From an uncultured Gammaproteobacteria bacterium (GTDB taxonomy: Bacteria > Pseudomonadota > Gammaproteobacteria > Xanthomonadales > Rhodanobacteraceae), in assembly GCA_963828675.1 (NCBI GenBank), contig CAWHFQ010000001.1:1538261-1602260 (forward strand): a stretch of 64,000 bases of DNA, read 5' to 3'. The position numbers and the translations under genes are program-made. Within the stretch, counting starts at the first letter, position 1. Each line of letters begins with the position of its first letter. Shown one piece after another: positions 37,566 to 39,852 of this stretch. The notes under the pieces were generated by a model. That model was given only the letters and a program-made list of their open reading frames with translations. It searched no databases and had not been told where the DNA came from.

Positions 37566-37868
37566 TTAACCCAGATCTTCGTCACCCTTCTCGCTGGCGT
37601 CATCGTCAGTCTCGTGACTACTGTCATGGCCACCCTCAGGCTCGTCCTCATGCCCGCTGCCGGCAGCATTGGTCACGTGGTTGGGGTTCTTGATGTCCCT
37701 ATGGCCAAGTTCCTTTGTCAGGTGGCTGTCATCCCCAGAGATAGCCGCCTGCTTGAGTGCCTCACTAGCCTGCAGTCCAGTGAGTATTTGCGACAGGCTC
37801 TCTCCGGAAGCATGCCGCAATGAAGCGTCCCGCCCGATGGCCTCCAGCAGCTCAATGGTATTGCTCAT
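37566..37868 (-). CDS. borosin-type precursor peptide candidate A2 (100 aa; helical leader plus PNHV motif plus acidic/His-rich tail)
   Basis: An AGGGGA SD lies 5 nt upstream of the ATG at 37868. It is a paralogue of the 38625-38879 ORF (TIELLEAIGRDASLRHAS ... SHLTKELG ... PNHVTN). It sits next to methyltransferase remnants. Confidence 0.7.
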   Translation of the reverse strand: MSNTIELLEAIGRDASLRHASGESLSQILTGLQASEALKQAAISGDDSHLTKELGHRDIKNPNHVTNAAGSGHEDEPEGGHDSSHETDDDASEKGDEDLG

Positions 37869-38057
37869 ATTGTCCCCTAGTTTCGTTGTGAATGACTTGC
37901 CGGCCGAATCACGGGAGATGAGATCGCCCATGACGGGAAGCTGCGTGTCTCGGACGAAGCTCCACCGCTCTCGCGACCTCTACCCTGATATCGCCCTGAG
38001 CCTATCACGGTCCCAAAGATGCGAGCATCTCCGATTAGCCTGACGCTGTCCCAGGCT

Positions 38058-38350
38058 GCATCCAATGCCGCCACCGCCAACCGCTCGCGTACCGCCTGAT
38101 TGGGGCACAACGGAGCGGCGGGCGGAAGGATCACGGTCTCCTCGGCGGTTACCTCCGTCGCAGGCAAATCCGTCAGGGATACCCGGCGTACGCGCGGCTG
38201 CTGGATCGGCAGCGTCGTGCCGCGATAGATGATCAGCTCGTGATCCAGTGGGTAGTCTTTCTCAAGCACGTCCACCAGCACCTGCCGATATTCGGAACCG
38301 GTGGAAAAGTGTTTCAACGATCGGTCGCCCACCAGGCCCACTTGCCAGTG
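38058..38350 (-). pseudogene. 5'-truncated copy of the borosin-type N-methyltransferase gene (C-terminal ~100 codons only)
   Basis: About 80% nucleotide and about 85% amino-acid identity (hand alignment) to 39013-39287. Homology stops abruptly at about 38350. Only a TTG lies upstream, and the native stop is lost. Confidence 0.75.
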
Positions 38351-38404
38351 ACCTTTGAAACTTTGTTTCGAACTCTTCAAGCGGCAGCGTGCAATCGCGG
38401 TGAA

Positions 38405-38445
38405 GAATTAAAAGCCGAAGTCACGATAACCGCGACTTCGGCTTT
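38405..38445 (-). terminator. rho-independent terminator after precursor A1
   Basis: On the minus strand the sequence reads aaagccgaagtc-gcggttatcgt-gacttcggcTTTTAATTCTT: a 12-bp perfect stem followed by a U-rich tail. Confidence 0.7.
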
Positions 38446-38624
38446 AGGGAAAGCAAACCACAAGTTTTGTGTTCGGTCCAACTTCTTAGCTCGAATCACC
38501 GCACTAATCAGCGTGCAATGATTAGTCAATTAGTCGCCAAACGGCTCGACCATATGCCGTTCGCCAATCCGGCTCCTCTCAGCAGGAACTTGCCCTGATT
38601 GACAGTGACGATCGAAGTGGCCGG

Positions 38625-38879
38625 TTACGCCCCTTCTTCAAATATGAAATTGTTGACATGGTTAGGAGTGTCGCAATTCACGCTGCCGAGCTCCTCCGAC
38701 AAATGTGTGCCATCGCCGGTGGCGGCAGCGTGCTTCAAGCCTATCGTGGCGTTGGCGCGGACCAACGCCTCCAGCAAGGCTTCGGGTGAGGCGCGACGGA
38801 GCGATGCATCCGCCCCGATGGTTTCCAGCAGGGCAATGGTGTCCGTCGGGGGCATTACGTTATGTACGATGATCGGCAT
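38625..38879 (-). CDS. borosin-type precursor peptide candidate A1 (84 aa)
   Basis: An AGGAGA SD lies 4-5 nt upstream of the ATG at 38879, which is 90 nt downstream of the methyltransferase stop. The leader is TIALLETIGADASLRRAS...THLSEELG and the tail is NCDTPNHVNNFIFEEGA. Confidence 0.75.
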   Translation of the reverse strand: MPIIVHNVMPPTDTIALLETIGADASLRRASPEALLEALVRANATIGLKHAAATGDGTHLSEELGSVNCDTPNHVNNFIFEEGA

Positions 38880-38969
38880 GAGATTCTCCTGGTGCTTGTT
38901 GACAAATAGACCCGTCGAAACCGAAATGGCTTCTACAGGCTCTTTCCAGCGCCTCAAGTGCGCCCATTG

Positions 38970-39821
38970 CTAATTGCATGACGCAGCGATCAGTGCAGAC
39001 GCATCCAGCGCTGCCAACCGCTCCCTGACCGCCTGATTGGGGCGCAACGCGGACGCGGGCGGCAGGATCACGGTTTCCTCGGCGGTCACGTCCGTCGCAG
39101 ACAGATCGCGCAGAGCCACGCGACGGATGCGCGGCAGCTCGATCGGCAGGGTGGCCCCGCGATAGATAATCACCTCATGATCAAGCGGGTAGTCTTTTTC
39201 GAGTACGTCGACCAGCACTTGCCGGTATTCGGGCCCGGTGGAAAATCGTTTCAACGAGCGGTCGCCCACCAGCCCCACCTGCCACAGCACCAAGTAGGCA
39301 CCGGGATTGAGGGGCGTCTCGCAGAACAGTAACTGGCTCGCTTCGTAATGCTGACAACCGTAGCGACCCGGATCGATGCCGAGGTCGGCATACAGGCAAT
39401 CCTCGGCGGAGATGCCCGGCTCCATGTGCGCGCGGTAGCCTTCCGCTCGCGCCACCTTGATCACTTCGTGCGGCGACCAGGCAAATATGCCGGGATGGCC
39501 GTAGAACACGGCGCAGACTTTCCTGCCCGCGCGCACCTCGGCCATCATCACCTCGACCCACTCGCGGTAGGTAAGCAGGCGTGACTTGTCACCCTTGCCG
39601 TAATACGGCTGCAGGCTGCGTACATCCGGGTGCATGCTTTCCAGCCACATCTCCACGATGCCATCGGAGAGCGCAGCGAACACTACGTCCGCCTGTTCGA
39701 TATGACTGCGTGCCAGTGGGCTGAGATGCGAGCCGAGAGTCATGCCCAAGCCGACGCAGGCAATGCTTCCGCGTTGCTCGACGTTTTCGGGTATGGCTGT
39801 GATCGGTATATTCATATTCAT
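38970..39821 (-). CDS. SAM-dependent peptide alpha-N-methyltransferase, borosin (OphMA/SonM-like) family; tetrapyrrole-methylase fold
   Basis: Contains the blocks [65 protein letters not shown] and [11 protein letters not shown]. These match my memory of the OphMA and SonM methyltransferase domains. The start is the ATG at 39821 or 39815. Confidence 0.85.
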   Translation of the reverse strand: [283 protein letters not shown]

Positions 39822-39823
39822 CA

Positions 39824-39852
39824 AATATAGGTGGCCTTGGTGGAAATGTGAA
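39824..39852 (-). promoter_or_regulatory. candidate sigma70 promoter TTCACA-17 nt-TATATT abutting the methyltransferase start
   Basis: Read on the minus strand. The -10 ends 2 nt before the ATG at 39821, so the transcript would be leaderless or nearly so, possibly using the ATG at 39815. Confidence 0.4.

Follow-up and report, generated by a model that had tools for sequence, protein, structure and literature searches.

Backbone N-methylation of ribosomal peptides is rare, and it is of use to medicinal chemists because it brings better protease resistance and membrane permeability. To our knowledge, shewanellamide A is the sole borosin product identified from bacteria, and we know of no bacterial borosin with a known function. 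This first bacterial product comes from the son cluster of Shewanella oneidensis MR-1, which comprises the methyltransferase SonM (SO1478), the precursor SonA (SO1479), a GGDEF protein (SO1480) and a cation efflux pump (SO1481), and which encodes no protease (PMC10549244). Structures and kinetics have been reported for SonM and SonA (PMC8429565), and shewanellamide A corresponds to SonA residues 56–71, starting directly after G55 (PMC10549244). A large-scale survey in 2021 catalogued more than 1,600 predicted split borosin clusters, with Xanthomonadales accounting for 22.5% of the BLASTP hits; in 56% of split borosin clusters there is a GGDEF domain, carried by inner-membrane proteins with a periplasmic tetratricopeptide repeat (TPR) domain (bioRxiv 10.1101/2021.12.24.474128). 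Here we describe a locus in a 64,000-nucleotide stretch (the window) of contig CAWHFQ010000001.1, from an uncultured member of the Rhodanobacteraceae. The locus is very probably a Type IV (SonM/SonA-type) split borosin cluster, a source of peptides synthesized ribosomally and modified post-translationally (RiPPs), in a Rhodanobacter-like gammaproteobacterium.

The cluster lies on the minus strand, where an intact methyltransferase gene (MT1) is followed in turn by a first precursor gene (A1), a terminator-like hairpin, a truncated methyltransferase copy (psiMT), a second precursor gene (A2) and a gene for a protein with a TPR-like domain, a transmembrane (TM) segment and a GGDEF domain. It resembles the son cluster in having a single-domain methyltransferase, 46% identical to SonM with conserved active-site residues, a separate short precursor whose N-terminal five-helix borosin-binding domain ends in a conserved glycine (PMC8429565, PMC10549244), a GGDEF-domain gene after the precursor, and no protease in the cluster. 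It differs in carrying two precursor genes and a truncated second methyltransferase, and in its polar cores, PNHVNN in place of the YLVIS of SonA. The A2 tail, at 45 residues, is acidic and contains histidines, whereas the SonA core has 16 residues. The downstream cation efflux gene is absent; there is instead an upstream Na+/H+ exchanger gene, confined to a syntenic Rhodanobacter group, and the host belongs to the Rhodanobacteraceae rather than to Shewanella.

Two other borosin architectures invite comparison. The fungal proteins OphMA, dbOphMA and MroMA (Types I–III) have a homologous methyltransferase domain (E ~1e-46) with the same catalytic residues; in these proteins, however, the self-modifying enzyme includes the precursor core and the clasp (borosin-binding) region in one fused chain, whereas here enzyme and substrate are encoded by separate genes. 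Type X split borosins, found mostly in the Xanthomonadales, the order to which this host also belongs, likewise combine a periplasmic TPR domain, a GGDEF domain and a borosin methyltransferase, but as TPR-TM-GGDEF-methyltransferase fusions (bioRxiv 10.1101/2021.12.24.474128). This defining fusion is absent here, because MT1 and the GGDEF protein are separate open reading frames (ORFs) with the precursors in between, while every testable defining feature of a Type IV split borosin cluster is present. The locus is not novel in kind, its class being both published, as had been recognized when the locus was first noticed, and catalogued. That original prediction had also named no characterized member from this lineage or with this precursor type. 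The former part stands, in that our literature search found no characterized borosin from the Rhodanobacteraceae, and no borosin paper from the lineage among the 15 top-ranked results; the latter does not, since the precursor type is that of SonA (Type IV). The features specific to this locus are minor, namely polar cores with acidic, histidine-containing tails, dual precursors and a decayed second enzyme.

MT1 (38970..39821, minus strand) encodes an intact single-domain protein of 283 residues, which we assign as a SonM-like borosin α-N-methyltransferase of the SonM/OphMA clade of the TP_methylase family. The original prediction had proposed an OphMA/SonM-like enzyme with a tetrapyrrole-methylase fold; all of the sequence blocks that it quoted are present in the translation, and the sole Pfam domain is TP_methylase, at residues 20–228. 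When MT1 was compared by phmmer with all Protein Data Bank (PDB) sequences, the check that had been proposed at the outset, the top match was SonM of S. oneidensis (7LTC_A, E 9.5e-72, residues 18–269), with 46% identity over 252 aligned residues, and the next best were the fungal MroMA, dbOphM and OphMA at E ~1e-46. The sole tetrapyrrole enzyme among the matches, precorrin-2 C20-methyltransferase, scored E 0.0078, some 70 orders of magnitude weaker than SonM. The SonM residues Y58, R67, Y71, Y93, F99, E146, W166 and Q167, which form the active site and two locks as defined by mutagenesis and structure (PMC8429565), map to Y74, R81, Y85, Y107, F113, E160, W180 and Q181 of MT1, Y93 and its counterpart Y107 each standing in a YGHP motif. 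The translation also contains FYGHPGIF and EDCLYADLG, to be compared with the YGHP and DCLFAD motifs of the antiSMASH BorosinMT rule. The best NCBIfam tetrapyrrole models reached 12–21 bits on MT1 against cut-offs of 198–400, and the tetrapyrrole and YabN models together gave 12–27 bits against cut-offs of 198–525. The wider family is large, with at least 5,342 protein clusters at E 1e-10 or better.

The two small genes that accompany MT1 had been read as trans-acting split borosin substrates, with a helical N-terminal half and a divergent tail. A1 (38625..38879, minus strand) begins 90 nt past the MT1 stop codon behind an AGGAGA sequence, both as originally described, the latter 7 nt 5′ of its ATG. 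It encodes an 84-residue SonA-like protein with an N-terminal extension of 8–10 residues and a short C-terminal tail, in which ELG is followed by SVNCDTPNHVNNFIFEEGA. A2 (37566..37868, minus strand), placed in the family by synteny and profile, starts 1011 nt beyond the A1 start and encodes a protein of 100 residues, in which ELG is followed by a long, acidic, histidine-containing tail beginning HRDIKNPNHVTNAAGSGHEDEPEGGHD. With 51.5% identity over 66 residues, the two bear out the suggestion that they are paralogues. An alignment of 40 precursors revealed a conserved N-terminal domain of ~55 residues (consensus MSNxIxLLExIGxDAxLRHAS...LxxxLG) followed by a variable tail, and an AlphaFold2 (AF2) model of A1 places five helices within residues 11–63, as in the borosin-binding domain architecture of SonA. 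No Pfam or NCBIfam model covers A1, A2 or psiMT. When the precursor-family profile was searched against the PDB with hmmsearch, however, the seven best matches were all SonA chains (E 5e-4 to 1.2e-3, positions 1–60), and the next match followed at E 0.2. A second alignment, built from database homologues, aligned with SonA by hhalign with 94.5% probability and E 7.5e-8 over 59 columns. We take these matches to make A1 and A2, as a family, homologous to the SonA borosin-binding domain, in keeping with the original view of the small ORFs. The precursor family comprises at least 636 clusters, every one of them annotated as hypothetical.

The glycine that closes the helical domain, G65 in A1 and G55 in A2, aligns with G55 of SonA (by hhalign for A1), and is invariant in the A2 alignment and at least 90% conserved in the A1 alignment. 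Past this glycine, at a distance of 7–12 residues, both precursors carry a PNHV(N/T)N motif, which is a likely methylation target, in register with the methylated residues L63 and I65 of SonA. By analogy with SonM and SonA, a dimeric MT1 would dock the helical domain of A1, and probably that of A2 also, and would use S-adenosylmethionine to methylate backbone amides a few residues past the glycine, likely within PNHV(N/T)N. A protease encoded elsewhere would cut after the glycine, releasing the short peptide SVNCDTPNHVNNFIFEEGA from A1 and a long acidic peptide from A2.

Several observations weigh against this scheme. We infer methylation, its sites, cleavage and the product all by analogy. 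The homology of A1 and A2 to SonA is visible at the profile level only: in single-sequence phmmer searches of the PDB, A1 and A2 left SonA unmatched and returned chance matches alone (E ≥0.35). The AF2 model of A1 is of moderate confidence, with a mean predicted local distance difference test score of 62 (67–76 in the helical domain), and when it was submitted to Foldseek, SonA was the best match, with chains at ranks 1, 3, 7, 9, 15 and 18, at an E-value of 2.9, which is not significant. The putative cores are polar whereas that of SonA is hydrophobic, so the predicted methylation sites could be wrong. Lastly, A2 has lost the methyltransferase beside it and is separated from MT1 and A1 by the hairpin, so that its co-expression with MT1 and cross-recognition by the enzyme are assumptions.

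To place the locus among its relatives, we fetched 80 genomic loci; the counts cover 83 methyltransferase copies and 68 precursors. By tblastn, most of the loci proved to have a precursor homologue directly downstream of that of the methyltransferase, with E-values down to 1e-36. A precursor lies at most 1.5 kb downstream of 54 of the 83 methyltransferase copies, and for 55 of the 68 precursors a methyltransferase is found no more than 1 kb upstream; beside the enzyme, the small ORFs recur in dozens of genomes, which answers the neighbourhood check set by the original prediction. The closest loci, whose methyltransferases are 85–93% identical to MT1, come from Rhodanobacter genomes and related metagenome-assembled genomes (MAGs), and share the order ComM, Na+/H+ exchanger (NhaP), methyltransferase, precursor, GGDEF gene, isocitrate lyase and malate synthase. 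On these grounds the window is assigned to a Rhodanobacter-like organism. We considered the NhaP-type exchanger as a conserved part of the module and rejected it, as it adjoins the module only in this syntenic group. In these loci (L001–L010), a single precursor follows the orthologous methyltransferase and is 66–88% identical to A2. On this comparison, A2 is best seen as the syntenic precursor of the Rhodanobacter clade, and A1 and psiMT as extra material in the present locus; as the MT1 orthologues are partnered only by an A2-like precursor, MT1 probably serves A2 too. In Dyella kyungheensis (L056) and Luteibacter (L039, L049), a methyltransferase is directly followed by a short-tailed, A1-like precursor, without a GGDEF gene. 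Luteibacter additionally has a long, histidine-rich precursor adjoining the GGDEF gene, so that a short precursor is again found paired with a long one. Many long-tailed precursors of Luteibacter and Rhodanobacter (L038, L039, L049, L003) carry histidine- and aspartate-rich runs in their tails (HHHHHH, HDHDHDHDHD), which could bind metal ions.

The original prediction was right that the module holds neither protease nor exporter, yet in finding no further tailoring gene it overlooked a co-oriented gene (35708..37522, minus strand) that starts 43 nt past A2. The encoded protein of 604 residues comprises a signal peptide, a TPR-like periplasmic domain, one TM segment and a GGDEF domain (Pfam GGDEF 7.9e-42, TPR_14 1.3e-4), with a GGEEF active site and an RESD I-site, and is a putative diguanylate cyclase. 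The window from 35437 to 39084 is 100% identical over 3648 nt to a separate contig from a public sequencing run, so the arrangement is recovered in a separate public assembly too, and the gene caller used there chose the same start for the 604-residue protein. Of the 80 loci, 72 have a full-length TPR-TM-GGDEF homologue downstream of the methyltransferase, and the GGDEF gene follows within 1 kb of the precursor in 61 of 68 cases. The precursor-plus-GGDEF arrangement is conserved in the Rhodanobacteraceae, the Steroidobacteraceae and a few relatives in the Alteromonadales and Chromatiales. Such tight linkage of the module to a diguanylate cyclase suggests a connection with cyclic di-GMP (c-di-GMP) signalling.

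Two side observations concern this partner gene. Precursor-GGDEF pairs outnumber methyltransferases in some loci (L004, L033 and L045, from a Lysobacterales MAG and Rhodanobacter), for example as methyltransferase, precursor, GGDEF, precursor, GGDEF, which suggests that one enzyme serves several pairs. In an uncultured Gammaproteobacteria MAG (L012, 5919–8003), the precursor ORF runs in frame into the TPR-TM-GGDEF gene, giving a product of 694 residues. Either precursor and cyclase are naturally fused here, or the continuous frame stems from a sequencing frameshift or a lost stop codon; a real fusion would speak for the two being directly linked in function.

The original prediction also missed what lies in the ~750 nt that separate A1 from A2, which contain both the terminator-like hairpin and a 5′-truncated methyltransferase copy. 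This copy, psiMT (38054..38386, minus strand), was located by tblastn and blastn and corresponds to about residues 167–275 of MT1. It is 74% identical to the MT1 protein over 111 residues (tblastn) and 83% identical to its DNA (blastn, 38076–38347 against 39013–39284); a codon comparison gave 76 identical residues out of 90, the codon differences being 26 synonymous and 14 non-synonymous. The copy lacks ~166 N-terminal residues, including domain A and the active site, and it also lacks the normal stop, its ORF running ~65 codons beyond the usual end. Without the catalytic residues of domain A, psiMT is inactive as an enzyme. A recent tandem duplication of MT1 was considered and rejected as its origin: psiMT shows ~80–85% nucleotide identity to MT1 and to the closest orthologues alike, while for the corresponding part of MT1 the identity to its closest orthologues (L001, L002) reaches 91%. 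Tandem arrays of modules are common in the relatives (for example, L012, L032, L034 and L036), and a remnant of a second methyltransferase-precursor module is therefore the most economical, and the most likely, reading of psiMT. The hairpin (38411..38445, minus strand) has a 16-bp stem followed by a T-rich tail; it is identified by consensus match only and is unique in the window. It lies in a spacer (38348–38624) with a guanine-cytosine (GC) content of 50%. The 291-nt low-GC spacer between A1 and psiMT yielded no remnant of a GGDEF, methyltransferase or precursor gene, and searches of the 80 loci, of the remainder of the window and of a plasmid collection gave no match to it.

How firmly the locus can be called a borosin cluster depends on how its enzyme and its small genes are explained. 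Were MT1 an ordinary tetrapyrrole (corrin or siroheme) methylase, or one like YabN or RsmI, with unrelated small ORFs beside it, one would expect a Pfam result with TP_methylase only, as is found, and database names such as 'precorrin-6B methylase' or 'siroheme synthase', which some sources do give to homologues. The match to SonM, however, exceeds the best precorrin methylase match by the ~70 orders of magnitude given above, the NCBIfam tetrapyrrole and YabN models fall far under their cut-offs, and the small ORFs co-occur with the methyltransferase gene across genomes and are homologous to SonA. As had also been remarked at first, no cobalamin or siroheme genes are found among the large ORFs scanned at ~22–54 kb. 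On the PDB ranking, the NCBIfam scores and the SonA profile match, a tetrapyrrole-methylase identity is refuted as far as sequence evidence goes, and we give this explanation next to no credence. A different challenge comes from psiMT, whose missing N terminus and stop, together with an orphan spacer of 50% GC whose terminator-like hairpin breaks up the operon, might mark the locus as a decaying and partly non-functional remnant, in which one methyltransferase was lost through a rearrangement and modification or expression has ceased for A2, A1 or both. Such decay is very unlikely in our judgement, given that intact ORFs remain for MT1, A1, A2 and the GGDEF gene alike, that MT1 and A2 retain the levels of identity to their orthologues reported above, with the catalytic residues kept in MT1, and that the pairing of short- and long-tailed precursors recurs in Luteibacter.

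The explanation closest to the split borosin assignment accepts the enzyme and its substrates and departs from it over their fate. A1 and A2 might stay uncleaved and, as whole small proteins with a methylated backbone, bind to or regulate the adjacent TPR-TM-GGDEF cyclase, with MT1 serving as a regulatory protein methyltransferase and not as a tailoring enzyme for RiPPs. This idea draws on the close succession of precursor and GGDEF genes in 61 of 68 cases and the surplus of precursor-GGDEF pairs over methyltransferases in several loci, on the lack of a protease or exporter gene in the module, on the long acidic tails of the A2 type, which are unlike classical cores, and on the in-frame ORF of L012. 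The native host of shewanellamide A, moreover, yields it only at trace level (PMC10549244). Yet the glycine at the end of the domain, which is the cleavage point in SonA, is nearly invariant; a cleaved product has been demonstrated for the homologous Shewanella system (PMC10549244); and while the cyclase's TPR domain is predicted to lie in the periplasm, A1 and A2 carry no signal peptide. Taken together, we regard uncleaved regulators as a serious rival for the later steps but an unlikely one, and favour a split borosin cluster with cleaved products. Those products may themselves bear on the cyclase. The short-tailed precursor type adjoins the methyltransferase, and the long, acidic, histidine-rich type, possibly metal-binding, adjoins the cyclase. 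We speculate, with considerable doubt, that the neighbouring cyclase has the backbone-methylated A1 and A2 products as its dedicated ligands or regulators, which would form a peptide-based (autocrine or quorum-like) c-di-GMP input rather than an antibiotic-type RiPP, with different roles for the two precursor sub-types. If true, this would be the first physiological function for split borosins.

As a compact test system, the split borosin cluster described here brings together one intact enzyme, a conserved cyclase partner and two natural substrates whose polar cores differ. Such a system could serve to explore the rules for substrates whose cores are not hydrophobic, and to examine whether split borosins are tied to c-di-GMP signalling, as is suspected but unproven. 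For the latter question, the 61 of 68 precursors directly 5′ of a GGDEF gene and the surplus precursor-GGDEF pairs provide a modest comparative frame.

The entire module falls within a lower-GC island (35708..39960) with 58.4% GC, against 66% in both flanks. This low GC content is observed despite the synteny of the module across several Rhodanobacter genomes, and could reflect either horizontal acquisition long ago or a peculiar composition of the genes themselves. Just 5′ of MT1 lies a weak promoter-like site (TTCACA-17-TATATT; 39824..39852, minus strand) with 10 of 12 consensus positions. The number of promoter-like sites in the region does not exceed that in shuffled sequence, and as this site abuts the annotated MT1 ATG, one of the two, the site or the start codon, is in doubt. 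Rfam gave no match within 35000–40500, and no tRNA or tmRNA gene was found in the window, unlike the Shewanella cluster, which is adjoined by an ssrA gene.

Upstream of the module lie a Na+/H+ exchanger with a TrkA-N domain (40002–42080, minus strand) and a ComM/Mg-chelatase-like ATPase (41902–43401, minus strand), followed on the plus strand by a PII-like protein (43898–44329) and the large subunit of ribonucleotide reductase (44789–47218), both identified by inspection, and the small subunit of the latter (47473–48498), identified by Pfam. On the other side, a LysR-type regulator (31466–32503, minus strand) is followed by the glyoxylate shunt genes for malate synthase (32626–34221, plus strand) and isocitrate lyase (within 34166–35632, plus strand), which stand side by side and are convergent on the GGDEF gene. 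Three peptidase genes are found 10–15 kb away, at 22502–25333 (minus strand), 48973–50373 (plus strand) and 51077–53437 (minus strand), and are of the M16 insulinase-like, BlaR1-type M56 and DPP-IV-like kinds; nothing ties them to the borosin module, but they are candidates should a processing protease be sought.

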